Part shown: positions 191 to 63,313 of the stretch, piece after piece
How the letters are laid out: each line of letters opens with the position of its first letter
Position numbering within the stretch: the stretch's first letter is position 1
Source: an uncultured virus (IMG/VR IMGVR_UViG_3300044678_003135)
Lineage: Duplodnaviria; Heunggongvirae; Uroviricota; Caudoviricetes
Reading direction: 5' to 3' (one strand)
Virus record (IMG/VR): IMGVR_UViG_3300044678_003135
DNA: 64,000 nt
Notes under the pieces: generated by a model
Told to the model about the DNA's origin: nothing
Databases searched by the model: none
What the model saw: the letters and a program-made list of their open reading frames with translations, nothing else
Translations under genes and position numbers: made by a program

Positions 191-1432
191 ATGAGACACC
201 ACGGCTCGGTGGATTGTGCAGCCCTGCAACACCGGCTTGATGCCCTCAGGCGGAAATGCACCACCGGCTATGGGTGCGGATCGACCTGCATCAGCATCAA
301 GAAGGAGTGCCGGGTCAGTCCCGGCAGCTCGACTGGCAAGCAGCGCATGAAGCGGCTGCTGGCCCTGGCCGCGGGCGAGAAGGTGTCCCAGCAGCCGCGC
401 AGTGGCATCACGATCACGACTGATTCGGACGGAGGAGAGCCTCGACTCAATGGGCTCAAGCCAACACGCAGTCTTGGCAGTGGGGCATTTGGCAAGACCT
501 ACCAGTTCGACACAGAAGACGGGCCGGTGGTGGTGAAGGTCAACGGTCTCACGATGGGCGATCCTGCTGAGAGCAACCCAGGGGTGGGCCTGGCGGAGCA
601 GCGGGAAAACGTGGCTCGGCGAGAGTTCAAGAACCTGCAGCGGGCCCATGCGACCGGACTGGGCCCCGAACCCATCGGCAAGCTCACCCATCTGCCCGAT
701 GGCCGCTGGAGCCTGGCCTACCGAATGCTGCCGGGCTCAAAGCTCACTCCGTCTCACAACACAGTGGAGCTGACCTCTGAAGCTGCCACGTATCTGGCCG
801 ATCCCAAGGCCGCTGCCAGATACGTGGCTGGGGCGCTGCAACTGGCCCGCCGGCAGGCCGACACGGGTCTAATCCATGGCGACTTGCATGGCGGCAACGT
901 ACTGGTGGGCCCTGATGGCACCCCACGCCTGATCGACTGGGGACAGGTGCGCGAAAGCCGCAATCCATGGAATCAGGGCACCCGGAGCCCAGCAATGAAA
1001 GCAACAGACGAGGGCTATGCGCTCATTCCTCTTCTCAGCATGGCCGGACAGGCGCAGCGCCTGCCGGAAGCAGCCAAAGGCGTCTCTGAGCTTGTGGCCA
1101 TTGCCCGAGAAAAGGCAAGAGATGCAGAGATGGCATTCGGCCGCGTCATCGCAGCCCACGACTTGGCCTGGAAGGAAGCCAACGAAGAGAAAGTGGGAGC
1201 CAAGCTGGAGAAGGGTGAGTTCCGTCGGCGGATGGTGGAGGCCAACAGGCTCAAACGAGAGGAGGGGATGCCCTACGACATGGCTCTACGGGATCCCCGT
1301 GTCGGACTGGAGGCCCCCCTGACGCCAGAGGTGCTGGCCCGGGCCGCTGAGGCCCGTGACGCCATCTTTGGCCAGAGTGACCTCAATGAGATGCGGCGCG
1401 AGCTGGATCGCCGTTTTGGGGGCCGAGCATGA
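191..1432 (+). CDS. Protein kinase-like (Ser/Thr or APH-fold) protein with N-terminal Cys-rich module
   Basis: GSGAFG glycine loop, VVVK lysine, HGDLHGGN catalytic loop, IDWG; start set at ATG 191 just after the upstream stop. Confidence 0.85.
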   Translation: MRHHGSVDCAALQHRLDALRRKCTTGYGCGSTCISIKKECRVSPGSSTGKQRMKRLLALAAGEKVSQQPRSGITITTDSDGGEPRLNGLKPTRSLGSGAFGKTYQFDTEDGPVVVKVNGLTMGDPAESNPGVGLAEQRENVARREFKNLQRAHATGLGPEPIGKLTHLPDGRWSLAYRMLPGSKLTPSHNTVELTSEAATYLADPKAAARYVAGALQLARRQADTGLIHGDLHGGNVLVGPDGTPRLIDWGQVRESRNPWNQGTRSPAMKATDEGYALIPLLSMAGQAQRLPEAAKGVSELVAIAREKARDAEMAFGRVIAAHDLAWKEANEEKVGAKLEKGEFRRRMVEANRLKREEGMPYDMALRDPRVGLEAPLTPEVLARAAEARDAIFGQSDLNEMRRELDRRFGGRA

Positions 1433-1620: not shown

Positions 1621-3006
1621 ATGGCTGACCGCTCCCTGGATCTGATCGAGCAGCTCGACCAGGAGCTGCGGGGCCTGGAGGACCAGCAGCTGCGGAAGCT
1701 CAAGGGCATCTTCGATGAGGCCCTGCGCCGCACCATCCGCAGCCTGATGGATCGCCTGGAGCGGATCGAGGCCCAGCCCGACTACGACCCGGCCACCACC
1801 CCCGGTGCCTTCCTGGGCTCCACCCCGGATGGCCCGGTGCCGATCACCCCGTTGCAGAAAGATCAGGCCAGCCTCTACCTGCAAGGCCAGCTGGCCCAGG
1901 ACCTGCAGGTGATCATCAACCGCTTCCCGGCCGATCGGGCAGCCAATGCAGCCCTGAACCGTGAGCTCACGGAGCTCTACAACCGGGCCCAAGATCTGGG
2001 GACTGAGTACGCCCTCGAGCTGTCGCGGGACATGCTCCCCCCGGCGGCCGTGCTCAGCAGCCGCCACCCCTCGCTGCAGGACCCCCAGCTGCCACCGGCG
2101 GCACCACCGGCCCCCACCGACGCCCCGGCCCCGGGCAGCCCCTACCAGGAGGGGCAGAGCTTCACCAGGCTCCTGAACCTGGGGGCCGTCATCGCCGCGT
2201 CTGAGCGGGACTTCAAGACCCTCAGCGCCGACTACCGCCGCCAGCGCAACGCCGCAACCTCCGATCGGGTCTGGGCAGCGAAGGACTATTTCTTCCGCTG
2301 GTGGCGCGACTGGGGCGATGCCGTGCAGTTCGAGACCGCCACTCAGATGGCCACCGGCGTCGACAGCCGCGCCCTGGCCCGCAACCTCAAGGCCCGCCTC
2401 CCCCACATCAACGATGCGTTTCGCAACCGGGCCGAGACCGTGGCCCGCACCGAGACCCACATCGCCGCCGGCGAGGCCAGAGAGCGCACCTTCCGCCGCA
2501 TCGGCGTTGGGTTCGTGCGGTACGTGGCCACCGCCGACGATCGGGTCTGCGAGTTCTGCGCACCCCGGATGGGGGCCCTCTATTACGCCGGCAGCGTCAA
2601 AACCCCCATCCATCCCAGATGCAGGTGTGCCCTTTCCCCGATCACCCTGGAGGCGCTGGTGATCCAGAACCAGTTGGCGGCCAACCGCGGCGAGCGCTGG
2701 GAGGATCAGCAGCAGGCACTGGCCGCGGGGACCCGCAGGAAGTACGACGAGGCCAGCACCAGGCCCTGGCGGCCAATCGGCGGCACCGGTGAACCCCGGG
2801 GCCCGCGGGACTACCCCCTGATGGAACGCACCGCCCTGCCGGCCACCACTCCAAGGCCCAACACCGAGAACAACCCCGCCAACGGTGGGGCCAGGCCCTG
2901 GCCATCGGGGGATCCGGTCTGGACCCCCTCCAGGGGCTGGATCAATGCCGCCGCTCGCGAGGCCTACGAGGCCATGGTCAATGAGGTGGCGGAGCTGGAG
3001 GTGTGA
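1621..3006 (+). CDS. Phage head morphogenesis protein (MuF / SPP1 gp7 family)
   Basis: RAETVARTE...ATADDRVCEFC...PIHPRCRC signature of the MuF domain. Confidence 0.9.
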   Translation: MADRSLDLIEQLDQELRGLEDQQLRKLKGIFDEALRRTIRSLMDRLERIEAQPDYDPATTPGAFLGSTPDGPVPITPLQKDQASLYLQGQLAQDLQVIINRFPADRAANAALNRELTELYNRAQDLGTEYALELSRDMLPPAAVLSSRHPSLQDPQLPPAAPPAPTDAPAPGSPYQEGQSFTRLLNLGAVIAASERDFKTLSADYRRQRNAATSDRVWAAKDYFFRWWRDWGDAVQFETATQMATGVDSRALARNLKARLPHINDAFRNRAETVARTETHIAAGEARERTFRRIGVGFVRYVATADDRVCEFCAPRMGALYYAGSVKTPIHPRCRCALSPITLEALVIQNQLAANRGERWEDQQQALAAGTRRKYDEASTRPWRPIGGTGEPRGPRDYPLMERTALPATTPRPNTENNPANGGARPWPSGDPVWTPSRGWINAAAREAYEAMVNEVAELEV

Positions 3007-3292
3007 CAGTCCTGATCTCGGCAGCGGCACCGAACGCTCGGCCGAACTCAGCAAAGGCGTTTTCCGCCTGCTTCACCGTTGCCAGGACCTGGTTCATCTG
3101 CTTGCCGACCGACCGAACAACTTCGGCGTAGCGCCGGATGCGTGCAGAGAACAGCTCCTCAGGCTTCGCAGGCCAGAACTTGTCCCACTGCATCTGGCCC
3201 CAGATGGTGCCGCCTTTGAAGGGGGCAGTGTTGGCCCAGTGGATGCGACCGATTCGGCCTCCGGTGCTGGTGAAGGAAATGAAGGTGACCAT
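2978..3292 (-). CDS. Hypothetical protein
   Basis: ATG ORF downstream of 3349-3837 on the same strand. Confidence 0.5.
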   Translation of the reverse strand: MVTFISFTSTGGRIGRIHWANTAPFKGGTIWGQMQWDKFWPAKPEELFSARIRRYAEVVRSVGKQMNQVLATVKQAENAFAEFGRAFGAAAEIRTVTPPAPPPH

Positions 3293-3348
3293 GGGAAGCG
3301 TGCGATGGGAAGGGGTGCCGGATGGGCTCCGGCGGGCCGTGGTGGTGC

Positions 3349-3837
3349 TCAGGCAACAAGGGCCTTGCGGACCTGGTAGCGGGTGAGCCCCAGTGTGCCG
3401 GCGATCTCCCGCTGGCTGCAGCCCTGAGCGGCGAGACGCCGGACCGAGGGCGGTGCGACGTTGGCGGAGGTGGTGACCGGAGCGGCATCTGGGGCCGGCA
3501 AAAGTTCGGCGCCGTTAGTGATAGCAACGGGTTTCGGCCCCACGGGGGTGGTGACCATTTCCGTGGCGCCAGGAAATTGGTCTGGAGCTGAACCTGTAAG
3601 CCTGGCTTTCAAGTTGCCCCCGGACAACCCCAGCCGGGCCAGGCCGTGGAGCTGGTGCTCCTGGGCCCAGGCCACCAGCTGATGCCAGCGCTCGCCGGCC
3701 ATGAAACCCAGCGTGTAGATCAGGGCCACCACCGCCCCCAGGCGGCGGGCAGCGGCATGGAGCGTCGGGCCCCAGTCGGAGGAAAGGCCCCTGGTGATGG
3801 TCTTCAGATCGGGAGCGGTGATGCAGATCGTGGTCAT
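3349..3837 (-). CDS. Membrane-anchored protein with C-terminal HTH
   Basis: Hydrophobic LGAVVALIYTLGFMAG; C-terminal RRLAAQGCSQREIAGTLGLTRYQVRKAL. Confidence 0.65.
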   Translation of the reverse strand: MTTICITAPDLKTITRGLSSDWGPTLHAAARRLGAVVALIYTLGFMAGERWHQLVAWAQEHQLHGLARLGLSGGNLKARLTGSAPDQFPGATEMVTTPVGPKPVAITNGAELLPAPDAAPVTTSANVAPPSVRRLAAQGCSQREIAGTLGLTRYQVRKALVA

Positions 3838-3941
3838 GGTTCGGTCCTATGAGGGTCCCGGCGGCTGCTCAGAGCCTGCTCAGGGTGGGTTGTAATGCGG
3901 TGCCAGCAGGGCCACTCAGGGCTCTTCTGCTGGATTTGATT

Positions 3942-4016
3942 GCCCCCTAACTGCTGGGGGCGGATCGGCCCGGTTTTGCGCCTATGGCCGGCTGGCGATC
4001 GGGTTGTCTCCCCCGA
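3942..4016 (-). ncRNA. Putative structured 5' leader RNA, copy 1
   Basis: Three predicted hairpins; sequence and layout shared with 61511-61574. Confidence 0.5.
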
Positions 4017-4113
4017 CGCCTGAACCGTACCACAGGCAGCGCTTATGAGACGGTATCTAAGGAAAACGTCGTCAAAGCGCTAGGCTCCGAAACCACTGCA
4101 CCGCAGCCTATCC

Positions 4114-5418
4114 ATGAAGCTCGGCTATGCCCGCGTCTCGAAGGAGGAGCAGGCCGACTCCCTGCCAGCTCAGGTGGCCAGGCTTCGGGCGGCCGGTTGT
4201 GATCGGATCGTGGAGGAGCTGGAGAGCGGTCGGAATGACGATCGCCCCGGCCTGGCGGAAGTGATCCTTGAGGTTCGCTCAGGCCGCGTGGCCGAGCTGG
4301 TGATCACCAGAGCCGATCGGCTGGGCCGCAACGCCGCCTTCGCCGATGAGCTGCTGGCCCTGTGCGGGATCCAAGGGGTCAAGGTCACGGCGATCGACGG
4401 CGGCACCATCGAAGCGGCGTCACCCCAGGGATTCATGCAAGCCCGGATCCTCACCACCATGGCCGAGGTGGAGTCGCGGATGCTGAGCCTGCGGCTGCGG
4501 CGGCAGTTTGAGCAGTACCGCTCCCAGGGCCGCCACCTACGGCGCCGGAAACCGTTTGGGTATCGAGGCGGTGCCAACCACAAGTTGGAGCCCCACCCGG
4601 AGCACTGGCCCCAAGCGTTGAAGGTGTTGGAGAGGTTGCGGCAGTTGGGGAGTTTCTCAGCGGTGATGAGAGAATTGCCGAGCTGGTGCGAGTGGACCCC
4701 GGCGAGCCCAAACCTGCAGGCTTGGTTCTACAACCCCTGCATCAGGGGGCACGTGGGCCACCTACTGCAGAAAGGCAGCGGGAAGAGCTGGAATCAGCAA
4801 TGGGGCGAGATCCACTACGACCAGCACCCGCCGCTGATCGGTGAGGCCGATTGGCAGGAGCTGGCGATGTATCTGCGGCGGCCCAGCAACACCTTTCTGG
4901 GTCGAGGCCGTGAAGCTCGCCATGGGTTGACCGGGTTGCTGAGCTGCGCGGCGTGCGGCCACAGCCTGCGCCGCAACAACTCGGGGAATACGGCGTGGTG
5001 GCGTTGCCGTCACCGGTTGTGCGAGGAGAAAGGCGCCATCCGGGAACCTGATGCCATGCCTCTGGCGGTGGCGGCGTGCGTGGCTGCTGCAGATCGCCTG
5101 GCGGCAGCGTATGCCATGCCCGCCGACGAGGATCCGGCGGTGGCGGCAAAGCGGCGGGATCTGGAGCAACTGGAGGGGCTGGCTAGGCGCAACCCGGCGA
5201 TTGCATCGGCGTGCGTTGCGTTGCGGACGGAGATTGCCAGCCTGATAGGACGGCCGAGGGTGGCACCTGAGTTGGCTGGCTATGCCGAGCGGATCAGCGA
5301 CCCTGAGTTTTTCGCGGGTGCGACACCAGAGGAGCAACGGGCGCTGTTTTCGGCGGTGCTGGAGACCCTGGCGGTGGGTCCAACGGGGGAAGTCCGCGCT
5401 CAGCCGCGTAGCTGGTAA
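4114..5418 (+). CDS. Large serine recombinase (integrase)
   Basis: YARVS catalytic motif, ESG...RPGL, DRLGR, recombinase domain and Zn ribbon LTGLLSCAACG...WRCRHRLC. Confidence 0.95.
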   Translation: MKLGYARVSKEEQADSLPAQVARLRAAGCDRIVEELESGRNDDRPGLAEVILEVRSGRVAELVITRADRLGRNAAFADELLALCGIQGVKVTAIDGGTIEAASPQGFMQARILTTMAEVESRMLSLRLRRQFEQYRSQGRHLRRRKPFGYRGGANHKLEPHPEHWPQALKVLERLRQLGSFSAVMRELPSWCEWTPASPNLQAWFYNPCIRGHVGHLLQKGSGKSWNQQWGEIHYDQHPPLIGEADWQELAMYLRRPSNTFLGRGREARHGLTGLLSCAACGHSLRRNNSGNTAWWRCRHRLCEEKGAIREPDAMPLAVAACVAAADRLAAAYAMPADEDPAVAAKRRDLEQLEGLARRNPAIASACVALRTEIASLIGRPRVAPELAGYAERISDPEFFAGATPEEQRALFSAVLETLAVGPTGEVRAQPRSW

Positions 5419-15789: not shown

Positions 15790-16011
15790 TCAGGCCTGGG
15801 ATTCTGGCAAACTGCGTGTTTTCCTTTTGCGGGCTGCGTCTGCAGCCTTGCCTTCAGGGGTTTTCTTTCCACACATGGAGCAAAGAGGAAGAAAAAACTG
15901 ACCCCAAGCTTTCCGTCCACACCGTGGGCAGACCGGACAAGGAGGGGCGTCACCATCAACTCGAGCGCGAAACCGTTTTACTCTCTCCCTGGAAGTGTCA
16001 GGCATCGTCAA
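15790..16011 (-). CDS. Small C4 zinc-finger protein
   Basis: CPRCGR...LCSMC; paralogue at 62671-62880. Confidence 0.7.
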   Translation of the reverse strand: MTMPDTSRERVKRFRARVDGDAPPCPVCPRCGRKAWGQFFLPLCSMCGKKTPEGKAADAARKRKTRSLPESQA

Positions 16012-23715: not shown

Positions 23716-24690
23716 ATGAATAGCAGCCTCACCCCCAAGGGGATGGAGTCCCGCACCTGGAATGGTGTGGGCATCTTGCGTCGGCCCCTCGACGGCTACG
23801 TGAACGCCACAGCCATGTGCAAGGCCTACGGACGGCAGTGGTCCCACTACATGGAGAATGCCCGGACATCCCAGTATCTGCAAGCGTTGTCGAGCCAGTA
23901 TCTGCAAGCGTTGTCGAGGTCCCTCGGAATTCCGAGGGACCTCCTGACCCAGTCGATCACGACCGGCCCGAACGATCTGCGCGGCACCTGGGTCCACCCC
24001 CGCATCGCGGTGGACCTGGCCCGGTGGCTGCACCCTGAGTTTGCCGTGATGATGGACGGCTGGTTCCTGGAGAGCTTCACGCCCAAGCTCGCCGCCGATC
24101 CCAACCCGGCCCCGGCGGCCCTGCCCCCGAAGCAGCGTGAGCTGCTGGAGTACCAGGTCGGCGGCCCTGGCATCAACGTCCTCGGCGCCACCGCCTTCTC
24201 TGAGCCGCTGACCCAGATCCTCGACGCCTACACCACCCAGACGGAAGCCGAGCAGGAGGCACTGCCCCAACCTGAGCGCTGCCGTTCCCTGCGCTACCCC
24301 CGCCCTGCCGCCAAGCACTTCCTTGAATGGTTCGTCGCTGAGCACGGCCAGCTGGTGATCTCCCCCGCCCCTATCGGCATCCCTGTCGGAGCGGTGGCAT
24401 GCCCTCCCCGGCCACCGGCCCCGCCGGCACCCGCGCCGCAGCCCCCACGCAACGATCAGGCCTGGGCCATGCCCCAGCAGCGCTTCAATCGCGGCGACCT
24501 CATCACCGGCCCCGAGCTGGCCCACCTCCTGCACCTCGAAGCCCACACCATCAACAAGTGGGCCGCTGCCAAGCCGATCGGAGCAGAACGCGACGGCTGG
24601 CGCCTCATCGGCCGCGGCAAGCTCTCCGCCGGAAAGCTGTGCAGCACCTATCCCCCGGGCTGTGCCAGCTGGCTGTTCATGAAGCTCTGA
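23716..24690 (+). CDS. KilA-N domain protein (antirepressor-like)
   Basis: DGYVNATAMCKA...GTWVHPRIAVDLARWLHPEF; the start could alternatively be GTG 23668. Confidence 0.88.
   Translation: MNSSLTPKGMESRTWNGVGILRRPLDGYVNATAMCKAYGRQWSHYMENARTSQYLQALSSQYLQALSRSLGIPRDLLTQSITTGPNDLRGTWVHPRIAVDLARWLHPEFAVMMDGWFLESFTPKLAADPNPAPAALPPKQRELLEYQVGGPGINVLGATAFSEPLTQILDAYTTQTEAEQEALPQPERCRSLRYPRPAAKHFLEWFVAEHGQLVISPAPIGIPVGAVACPPRPPAPPAPAPQPPRNDQAWAMPQQRFNRGDLITGPELAHLLHLEAHTINKWAAAKPIGAERDGWRLIGRGKLSAGKLCSTYPPGCASWLFMKL
23871..23918 (+). repeat. Perfect 24-bp tandem duplication in KilA-N
   Basis: ccagtatctgcaagcgttgtcgag x2 (SQYLQALS x2). Confidence 0.95.
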
Positions 24691-61450: not shown

Positions 61451-61510
61451 CCTGCCCACACCTCGACGCCGCCCCGCCCGTCCTGCTACTTGTGCGTTAC
61501 AGTATGGGCA

Positions 61511-61574
61511 TCGGGGAGAGACAACCCCGCTAGGCGCCACCCACGCGCCGATCCGCCCCCAGTAGTCCGGGGGC
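61511..61574 (+). ncRNA. Putative structured 5' leader RNA, copy 2
   Basis: Shared with 3942-4016 (minus strand); preceded by TACAGT at the same 7-nt spacing. Confidence 0.5.
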
Positions 61575-61604
61575 ACACAAAGCATTCCCCATCGCTCCCC
61601 AGCC

Positions 61605-61901
61605 ATGACTGCCACCCCCGACATTGAAGTTCTTTGTTCTGACTATTGCAACAAAGCAACGTTTTGTGGCCTAACGGAAAAAGGCAAAAAAGCAATCAAG
61701 GAGGCTAAGTCAGTGTTTGATTTTGTTTTATGCGCTGATCGTAGTTCAAGATATGGCTTAACCCCGCACGATATTGTTGTTGGCAAGCATTACGAAGCTG
61801 AGCTTTGGAACTGGCTTCAAGCCAGAGCTTGCGTAAGGGGGCCACAGCTTGAGTATTGCTACGACGAAGACGGCAAGCCTCTTACGGCCTTTGCCACCTG
61901 A
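61605..61901 (+). CDS. Small low-GC cassette gene
   Basis: Preceded by CGCTCCCCAGCCATG. Confidence 0.65.
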   Translation: MTATPDIEVLCSDYCNKATFCGLTEKGKKAIKEAKSVFDFVLCADRSSRYGLTPHDIVVGKHYEAELWNWLQARACVRGPQLEYCYDEDGKPLTAFAT

Positions 61902-61953
61902 CCCCCACGGCCCGCTTAAGCCCACCAAGCACCCTTCCCACCGCTCCCCAGCC

Positions 61954-62103
61954 ATGTTCCGCTACGAAATCTCCTTCACTCTCCCTGGATCAACCCGCCT
62001 CATAGTTGAGGTCAAGGAATCAAACGCACCATGGGAGGCCACCGACCAGGTCCGGGCTGAGTACGGCGCCGACATCAAAATCATGCAAACCCGTTGCCTC
62101 TGA
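61954..62103 (+). CDS. Small cassette gene (49 aa)
   Basis: Preceded by the same CGCTCCCCAGCCATG. Confidence 0.6.
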   Translation: MFRYEISFTLPGSTRLIVEVKESNAPWEATDQVRAEYGADIKIMQTRCL

Positions 62104-62165
62104 TGCCTGACCCCCCCCGGCCCGCCGGGGCTTTCCCGGCAACTCATTCCACTACATTCAAACCA

Positions 62166-62420
62166 ATGGACCTTTCCAAGAACATGCAATCCGAAACTGA
62201 CATGGGCAGGTGGACGCTTGAAAATAACCTCGCGGTCTACAGGCATTGGCACGGGAGGGAAGACCGTTACAACCGACCCGGGCTGGAAGCGGCCATCCTA
62301 AACGTAAAAAACAATCGTAACTCTTACGCAACTTATGAAGCCTATGAACGGGATTGGTTTCATTTTGAGAGGGGCCTAGGCCTTTTCAGGGCCGCCGAAG
62401 CTGCGCATCAAGCCACCTAG
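62166..62420 (+). CDS. Small low-GC cassette gene
   Basis: ATG after a hairpin element shared with 16202-16247. Confidence 0.6.
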   Translation: MDLSKNMQSETDMGRWTLENNLAVYRHWHGREDRYNRPGLEAAILNVKNNRNSYATYEAYERDWFHFERGLGLFRAAEAAHQAT

Positions 62421-62447
62421 CCCCCACCACCCACCGCACGCACCGTC

Positions 62448-62678
62448 ATGGCAAACCGGCCTGATACTTCAACCGTCTCCGAATGGATCGTTGCAACTGA
62501 TCTGCATGCCGCGACCGATCAGCTGGCGGCAGCCTTTCGCCCCGTTGGCATTGCAGCCCGTCGCGCTGCGGCCAGACTTGAGCCGCTGTATCGCCTAATT
62601 ATTCAAGCCGAGCGAGGTAGCCCCATCGGCCGCAAACGGCGCGCACGCCGCGCCAGGGGCCGCCGCCGCCATGCCTGA
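62448..62678 (+). CDS. Small basic protein
   Basis: Arg-rich C-terminus; overlaps the Zn-finger start. Confidence 0.55.
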   Translation: MANRPDTSTVSEWIVATDLHAATDQLAAAFRPVGIAARRAAARLEPLYRLIIQAERGSPIGRKRRARRARGRRRHA

Positions 62679-62880
62679 CTCCACCAAATGGGCCCGTTAC
62701 CGGGCCCGGCTGGTCGGCAACCTTCCCCCAGTGCCGCTGTGCCCCACGTGCGGCCGAAAGATCCGTGGTGCGGGCCGTGATGGCCTCTGCTCCCGCTGCT
62801 GGGCCGCTACGCCTGCCGGTCGAGAAGACCTCAGGCAGCGAGTTGCTCGCTCTCGTCGGCGAGCTGCAGGGGGGAGCTGA
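62671..62880 (+). CDS. Small C4 zinc-finger protein
   Basis: CPTCGR...LCSRC; paralogue at 15790-16011. Confidence 0.7.
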   Translation: MPDSTKWARYRARLVGNLPPVPLCPTCGRKIRGAGRDGLCSRCWAATPAGREDLRQRVARSRRRAAGGS

Positions 62881-63313
62881 GCAGTTTCCACCGCTTCGCC
62901 AGCAGCGGCCGGTGGCCAGCCAGAAAGTTGCGCACCGTGTTGAACGGGATCCCCTTGGCTGAAGCGAAGGCCCGCTCCTGGCCGACGATGATCTCCTGCG
63001 CCCGCCCACCCGCTTGATCCCTCAGCCGCCACCTAGGCGCCTCGATGTCGTTGGGCTGGTCATCGGCGGAGCGCTTCACCCACCAGATCCAGGTGCCCCC
63101 CCCGTTGCCCCGGGTCACCCGCCGCAGCAGGCCCTGCCGCTCCAGCCGGGACAAGCAACGGTTCAGGGTCGCCCGCTCGCTGCCCAGCTGTTCCGCCAGA
63201 TCGGTGAGCGTTGGCCACCACCCGGGCACCAGCTGCTCGATCTGCACCAGCGTCATTGCCTGCTCCGCCCGCAGCTCGCGCCGCAGCTTCGCCAGGTAGG
63301 CGGGTTGCATCAT
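62831..63313 (-). CDS. Winged-HTH (MarR-like) protein
   Basis: TLTDLAEQLGSERATLNRCLSRLERQGLLRR. Confidence 0.75.
   Translation of the reverse strand: MMQPAYLAKLRRELRAEQAMTLVQIEQLVPGWWPTLTDLAEQLGSERATLNRCLSRLERQGLLRRVTRGNGGGTWIWWVKRSADDQPNDIEAPRWRLRDQAGGRAQEIIVGQERAFASAKGIPFNTVRNFLAGHRPLLAKRWKLLSSPLQLADESEQLAA

Follow-up and report, generated by a model that had tools for sequence, protein, structure and literature searches.

A modular pseudoknot RNA at the predicted heads of early transcription units in tailed phages of probable picocyanobacterial hosts

The window analyzed here, 64,000 nt in length, comprises bases 1 to 64,000 of a 64,923-nt virus contig. Its genome contains genes for a serine integrase, terminase, portal, major capsid, and tail proteins, and the source is therefore a temperate tailed phage. 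The element described below also occurs in genome records of Cyanobium or Aphanothece, suggesting a freshwater picocyanobacterium as the host. Among the virion genes lie a kinase-like gene (347 to 1432, plus strand) and a gene (23716 to 24690, plus strand) with an N terminus matching BstA-like and regulator PHROGs. Two copies of a leader element were found where the initial annotation had placed them, copy 1 at 3942 to 4029 on the minus strand and copy 2 at 61498 to 61574 on the plus strand, each with its hexamer (TACGGT and TACAGT, respectively), GAGACAA hairpin, and GCCGATCCGCCCCCAGYAGT..GGGGGC segment. A 16-mer shared by the two copies had no other exact match in the window, and blastn aligned them with 26 of 29 positions identical (E = 3e-4). 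A covariance model of the family scored copy 2 at 37.7 bits (E = 7.6e-8); copy 1 belongs to the model by construction and thus has no independent score. No third copy reaching E 0.17 was detected in the window with this model. The copies do lie on opposite strands, but the wide separation originally noted applies only to a linear genome. If the genome is circular, they are about 7.4 kb apart and face each other across the junction; a terminal repeat that would prove circularity was not found.

Copy 1, read along the minus strand, starts with the predicted -10 hexamer TACGGT (4024 to 4029), for which homologues have TATAAT, TACTAT, TATGAT, or TACAGT in the same register. A 5'-end hairpin with a GAGACAA loop, variable in the family, follows at 4000 to 4015, and then domain A, an H-type pseudoknot, at 3966 to 3997. 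Within domain A, helix S1 pairs 3997-3994 with 3982-3979 and helix S2 pairs 3990-3986 with 3970-3966, leaving loops L1 (3993-3991), L2 (3985-3983), and L3 (3978-3971, with AAACCG). A 4-nt junction (3962 to 3965) connects S2 to hairpin C (3942 to 3961), which has a 6-bp stem and the loop AGCAGUUA with an internal G-Y pair. An accessory hairpin, F, with a CUGAG loop (3903 to 3933, minus strand) is common to some relatives; in L011, L025, L038, and L145, it likewise occupies the stretch that separates the module from the first gene, and an F-like hairpin was seen in an L158 leader lacking the module. A transcript whose start lies at or before 4020 might fold with a longer 5' hairpin that captures the first strand of S1 (4020 to 3994, minus strand); a start near 4017 would exclude this extension in copy 1. 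The copy 1 cassette adjoins the serine integrase gene (4114 to 5418, plus strand), which diverges from the copy 1 promoter, and consists of two genes. The first (3349 to 3837, minus strand) encodes 162 aa with a hydrophobic N-terminal half and an HTH-like C terminus, FaeA-like below the cutoff. The second (2978 to 3292, minus strand) encodes 104 aa of no family and converges head-on with a head-morphogenesis gene (1621 to 3006, plus strand).

Copy 2, on the plus strand, has a predicted -10 hexamer TACAGT (61498 to 61503) and a 5'-end hairpin with the GAGACAA loop (61512 to 61529). S1 is absent, and the pseudoknot is replaced by domain B, a 5-bp hairpin with a CACCCAC loop (61533 to 61549), followed by the junction and hairpin C with the loop AGUAGUCC (61550 to 61574). 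A C/A-rich leader without a Shine-Dalgarno sequence (61575 to 61607) leads up to an ATG at 61605. The cassette contains five small open reading frames (ORFs; 61605 to 62871), ends head-on against 62831 to 63313 (minus strand), and has an Arg-rich Cys4 protein encoded by its last ORF (62671 to 62871). Another small Arg-rich Cys4 gene lies at about 15790 to 16010 on the minus strand; the first copy, which was the one tested, had no PHROG match, and such genes are usually last in early cassettes. Three small genes of the window are preceded by a pyrimidine-rich start context that ends in CCATG and has no Shine-Dalgarno sequence (61593 to 61607 and 61932 to 61956 on the plus strand and near 3314 on the minus strand).

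The description of a conserved structured leader proved correct as to the repeat itself, but the anatomy was reversed, with the conserved and variable parts exchanged. The GAGACAA hairpin, taken to be the conserved part, had this loop in just 14 of 62 distinct upstream regions. The supposedly variable middle of copy 1 is instead the best-conserved part of the family, forming the pseudoknot with CGCC at 3997 to 3994, and that of copy 2 is a different, near-invariant hairpin.

A search pattern built from the middle of copy 1 retrieved 51 viral loci and three cellular contigs, containing 37 distinct cores. The family core was found to consist of domain A, the 4-nt junction, and hairpin C with an AGYAGU loop. 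When the junction and C served as the pattern, 43 loci were obtained, of which 42 had domain A upstream and one was a clone of copy 2; this pattern is unable to match B copies with a GACC junction. Pairing holds in 98.7% of the cells across the 37 cores, and in each helix at least one pair is altered on both sides. Since the copy 1 pattern had fixed many stem bases, metagenomes were also scanned with a stem-blind pattern that fixed loop bases only. Of its 44 matches, which include near-identical contigs, 35 were paired family members, with S1 complete (4/4) in 35, S2 (5/5) in 34, and C (6/6) in 33, while the other 9 were not paired throughout and were attributed to chance. In a second pairing set of 26 sequences, hand-picked for diversity, 98.8% of the cells pair and both partners vary in 6 of 16 pairs, although one of the six counts only through the shifted register of L200. 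Where one side alone changes in this set, the result is a G-U wobble, compatible with the sense strand only. L200 itself retains S1, the A-rich loop, and C, with an S2 that is unrelated in sequence yet complementary. Because S1 crosses S2, domain A is an H-type pseudoknot, a topology that energy minimization is unable to show.

All three helices of A plus C were therefore found to covary among homologues, the check proposed in the initial annotation. The functional structured RNA behind a promoter that it envisaged is upheld by compensatory changes in every one of these helices, by the sense-only wobbles, and by the hexamer enrichment given below. By our own estimate, the existence of a real structured RNA is near certain. 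Scans anchored on GAGACAA and on B gave 3 family members among 10 matches and 4 among 18, respectively, and a dedicated scan for further variants of the L200 type gave none. The Rfam search suggested at the outset matched no family: with Rfam 15 at the gathering threshold, there were no matches in the window or in 20 related loci, and L050 gave chance matches alone at E values up to 10. With ARAGORN, the window and 56 of 57 loci were free of tRNA calls; the remaining locus, L050, gave one antisense call over the element, which was taken as an artifact. No description of the RNA was found in the published literature searched, mostly outside subscription papers, and five motif strings had no match in the six supplementary files of PMC10690425 that were searched. 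The RNA family is uncatalogued and in that respect new, and its fold is of a known kind.

Copy 2 represents a second natural type of the module, with the simple hairpin B in place of A. The B-plus-C arrangement also occurs in L005, L120, L126, L145, L162, and the cultured cyanophage S-2L. Derivation of copy 2 by mere deletion from an L005-like tandem was considered but is not the whole story, as B plus C recurs in these six others. B is near-invariant, so that its stem is proposed from folding and not from covariation. Arrays with two to four copies of hairpin C occur in S-2L (B-C-C-B-C), L126 (B-C-C-C), L162 (B-C-C-C-A-C), and L005 (B-C-A-C); their C stems have been swapped or replaced, but the loop is kept. 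Every form shares a core in which a helix is followed by the junction and hairpin C.

Of 64 distinct loci, 45 have a YAnnnT hexamer located 22 to 32 nt before the module, whereas such a hexamer occurs in 27% of random windows. The usual place of the module thus appears to be the head of a predicted early transcription unit, with start sites predicted from sequence. The element is probably transcribed; three metatranscriptome contig sets span neither copy, but contigs cannot reveal starts, and a hole in coverage proves nothing about the element. Nine of the 10 promoter-distal loci inspected have the module after a first gene of 57 aa, and in every locus inspected it is on the sense strand. The next ORF fell into 30 blastp clusters among 61 distinct loci. 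An ATG was found 20 to 40 nt after C in 47 of 66 loci and first occurred more than 55 nt from C in the other 19; a Shine-Dalgarno-like motif was seen in 4 of the 66. A U-tract after C, as in an intrinsic terminator, was found in only 2 of 64 loci, and the 20 nt after C averaged 82% C+A. The unit that contains the module in L138 and L150 has no ORF, and another promoter-like site comes after it.

Several other features were observed around the module. L138, L150, L168, L199, and L200 have longer ORF-free leaders with more shared motifs, and in L150, which belongs to a phage of lower GC content, the sequence runs on into DUF7249 and DUF7222 genes. In L022-L065 and others, a conserved box, ACAATCTGTGAAC, lies 100 to 110 nt upstream of the module; it recurs before tandem early promoters every 600 to 900 nt in relatives, and its pattern had no match in the genome of the window. 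L025, L145, L154, and L158 have a divergent promoter-like site on the opposite strand, ∼140 nt upstream of the promoter, which precedes another conserved multihairpin leader. In L033, L042, and L204, a C-stem hairpin with the loop AGCGACAC directly follows the stop codon of the first gene and sits before the same C/A-rich leader as the module.

Among 12 carrier genomes, which include that of S-2L, no protein was common to more than seven by blastp, which may miss small proteins. One module match was obtained in 19 of 25 carrier records; the six second matches comprised one full copy, one array, two C-like hairpins with another loop, and two that resembled chance. Several single-match carriers have tandem promoters of one class, and the close relatives L279 and L284 have the same promoter box and Arg-rich Cys4 gene without the module. 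With a Cys4 query seeded from module carriers, 65 related viral loci were identified. The RNA was found at 21 of all 65 by the model and at 18 of the 53 with at least 3 kb upstream, being absent from the other 35. The Cys4 protein is present in 8 of the 12 carriers and in 8 of the 10 genomes with A plus C, often last in the cassette; its gene was not found in S-2L, G142, G143, or G146, of which G143 and G146 are incomplete.

The best explanation, to which we assign a rough probability of one in three, is that both copies are a modular RNA serving as a decoy that ties up a conserved host RNA-binding protein, the partner being predicted. Of the functions offered in the initial annotation, a protein-binding leader is accordingly the one that the evidence favors. 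The strong early promoter would yield many RNA copies soon after phage entry, and the RNA would fold during synthesis. The rigid upstream helix (A, B, or another C) and the 4-nt junction would then present the AGYAGU hairpin to the protein, with each added hairpin offering the protein a further site. A host ribonuclease, or some other RNA-binding protein that limits phage growth, is the predicted target. This reading follows from the single copy per genome, arbitrary neighbors, gain and loss in close relatives, occurrence in unrelated phages, and multiplication that preserves the loop. One copy despite tandem promoters of the same class suits a diffusible product, and relatives with the same box and Cys4 gene but no module make the module look like optional cargo. 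There is precedent in phage PhiTE, in which, according to PMC3475682, pseudo-ToxI pseudoknot repeats expand to block ToxN. By analogy with that portrayal of pseudo-ToxI, the module is best explained as cargo RNA that would bind a host protein.

Searches for the counterpart in hosts gave no host RNA that might be mimicked; the model matched 5 of 125 host-genus genomes, and the four contexts inspected are phage-like. No C arrays were present among the 19 pattern matches listed from 401 host-family genomes. ToxN, the one type III toxin family covered, was over the cutoff in 0 of 301, and there was no model match near seven AbiF loci. Counting against a decoy, the module never has its own terminator, is always in the sense orientation near the 5' end, and has an ATG soon after it, placement that suits a cis element. 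Given this constant sense and 5'-proximal position, together with the likeness to put described below, the cis readings come close behind, which limits the decoy to the probability stated. We tentatively envisage a new class of phage anti-host RNAs, assembled from exchangeable modules, in which a put-like pseudoknot scaffold presents a repeatable AGYAGU hairpin that neutralizes a conserved cyanobacterial protein; such RNAs would be traded between unrelated phages much as anti-defense genes are. In such a class, the protein might possibly be a defense or decay ribonuclease or RNA polymerase itself.

The alternative closest in structure is a put-like cis element, in which the nascent RNA binds the zinc-binding domain of the host RNA polymerase and suppresses pausing or termination. 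The helices of domain A follow the same order as those of putL stem I, the topology of which (PMC9378689) domain A shares. With putL, putR, and homologue sequences taken from records, S2 (CGGCN/NGCCG) was compared with CGGCG/CGUCG of put and is identical to it in L153, and L3 shares UAAACC with five putL homologues, although AAACCG was fixed by the search patterns in all but the model search. The stem I arrangement of duplex, second helix, and AAAC strand was found in type A only, with the triplex presumed. A post hoc descriptor matched five HK022 sites, putL and putR included; with AAAC required in L3, it matched putL alone in HK022 and copy 1 alone in this genome, with 0 to 0.03 matches per shuffled genome. 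The two positions of the module, promoter-proximal and after a first 57-aa gene, mirror those of putL and putR. Cyanobium RpoC1 keeps zinc-domain residues K74-R77, a conservation that does not itself show binding. Weak U-tail hairpins downstream showed a mild excess in the sense direction (41 versus 25 antisense in 54 loci), and G136 has a co-oriented run of 7 kb. The structural basis of the annotated put-like antiterminator is thus real, but several put features are missing, and the gene layout fits poorly. Neither putL nor putR was among 14 HK022 matches of the family model at E values up to 10, although this model omits S1 and cannot score it. G35 of put, which pairs with A9 at the stem junction and is G in putL, putR, and six homologues, corresponds to an A after S2 in all 37 cores and all 26 diverse sequences. 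The long stem II with its conserved internal loop is absent, a 20-nt hairpin taking its place. Type B lacks S1, deletion of which inactivates put according to the same paper, and S2 is replaced wholesale in L200. PK1 of the Escherichia coli tmRNA has a similar S2 and A-rich loop, so the likeness is partly generic. Neither cassette of the window has a U-tract terminator. Ten genomes were mapped. In G126, G130, G134, G139, and G142, the cassette spans 1.4 to 2.7 kb and stops at a terminator or at an operon running the other way; G141 has the same short layout as the window; two genomes are truncated at contig ends; and the genes of G136 and G143 run on in the same orientation. Most cassettes examined are short, without internal U-tract terminators. 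Rho was over the cutoff in none of three hosts. We consider a put-like activity unlikely.

A posttranscriptional cis element, blocking 5'-3' decay by RNase J or recruiting S1 and the 30S subunit to leaders without a Shine-Dalgarno sequence, seems no less doubtful. RNase J was over the cutoff in all three hosts, and viral pseudoknots can stop RNase J1, as reported in PMC5760640, and a 5' pseudoknot assists S1 standby in tisB (PMC7708055). The ATG at 20 to 40 nt in 47 of 66 loci and the rarity of Shine-Dalgarno-like motifs (4/66) agree with such a role, as do C-like stems with another loop before internal genes in L033, L042, and L204. However, the module usually occurs once per genome, yet sister promoters drive similar genes without it; 19 of 66 loci have their first ATG beyond 55 nt; and a mechanical block needs no loop sequence preserved across swapped stems. 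An Aca-like operator, an RNA to which a small phage regulator encoded in the cassette would bind so as to reduce expression of early anti-defense genes, appears slightly less likely still. The layout resembles that of acr-aca operons in PMC13551039 (promoter box, RNA motif behind the start, diverse small genes, and regulator), where only about 40% of aca1 operons have their motif. HTH-bearing genes often follow the module, and the Cys4 protein, often last and present in 8 of 10 genomes with A plus C, would be a candidate regulator. No single candidate covers all carriers, however; 35 of 53 Cys4 loci lack the RNA even with a query seeded from carriers, the RNA is conserved far more than the Cys4 protein, and the structure leaves the start codon uncovered. 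A ligand-sensing riboswitch or self-cleaving ribozyme might be suggested by the compact pseudoknot and invariant loop bases, but it is very improbable in view of the lack of an Rfam match, 30 unrelated downstream gene clusters, and no terminator or platform for Shine-Dalgarno sequestration. In a comparison with the layout of the pistol ribozyme, no helix for a pistol-type P2 was seen by inspection. Three further ideas were rejected: a tmRNA mimic, as no similar segment was seen in the two-piece tmRNA of hosts; a CRISPR-repeat mimic, conceived from the layout of type I-E repeats, which was without Rfam support; and a REP-like DNA palindrome, as copies are rare, lie on the sense strand without exception, and contain G-U wobbles.

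Characterized examples of phage RNAs that target host machinery with no help from a phage protein are few; they include put and pseudo-ToxI, and also RNA anti-CRISPRs. The module has a covariation-supported fold common to phages with little else shared, and its array in the cultured cyanophage S-2L makes it directly testable. The decoy reading, if true, would point to an unrecognized RNA-sensitive defense or decay step in picocyanobacteria. If the activity were instead put-like, control of polymerase by RNA alone would reach past the lambdoid phages of enterobacteria and into hosts for which the search for Rho was negative.

Among known systems, the exoribonuclease-resistant RNAs (PMC5760640) may resemble the module in having a compact pseudoknot upstream of the RNA to be protected, and the host has RNase J; they are known from eukaryotic RNA viruses. 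PK1 of the E. coli tmRNA also folds as an H-type pseudoknot, in which S2 reads CGGUU/AGCCG and loop 3 is rich in A, but the module has no tRNA-like domain or tag frame. The Aca1 and Aca2 5'-UTR motifs (PMC13551039) are conserved RNAs behind an early-operon start with a small regulator; the module differs in having a pseudoknot, no universal cognate protein, and no acr genes identified, and the main text of that paper mentions neither cyanobacteria nor pseudoknots. PhiTE pseudo-ToxI and ToxI (PMC3475682) are also small phage-encoded pseudoknot RNAs with repeats expanded in some phages, whereas the module arrays repeat C and B and not pseudoknot A, and ToxN and a matching host RNA were not found. 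HK022 putL and putR (PMC9378689) differ from the module in L1 and L2 (2 and 0 nt, compared with 3 and 3 nt); the module further lacks the U28 bulge and has a short, tandem-repeating hairpin C, short cassettes, and a cyanobacterial host. On the same source, put and the module are both phage early-leader RNAs with a 5' duplex, a 5-bp helix, and an AAAC strand in that order, with S2 and UAAACC nearly or fully identical, and both are located behind the promoter or the first short gene.
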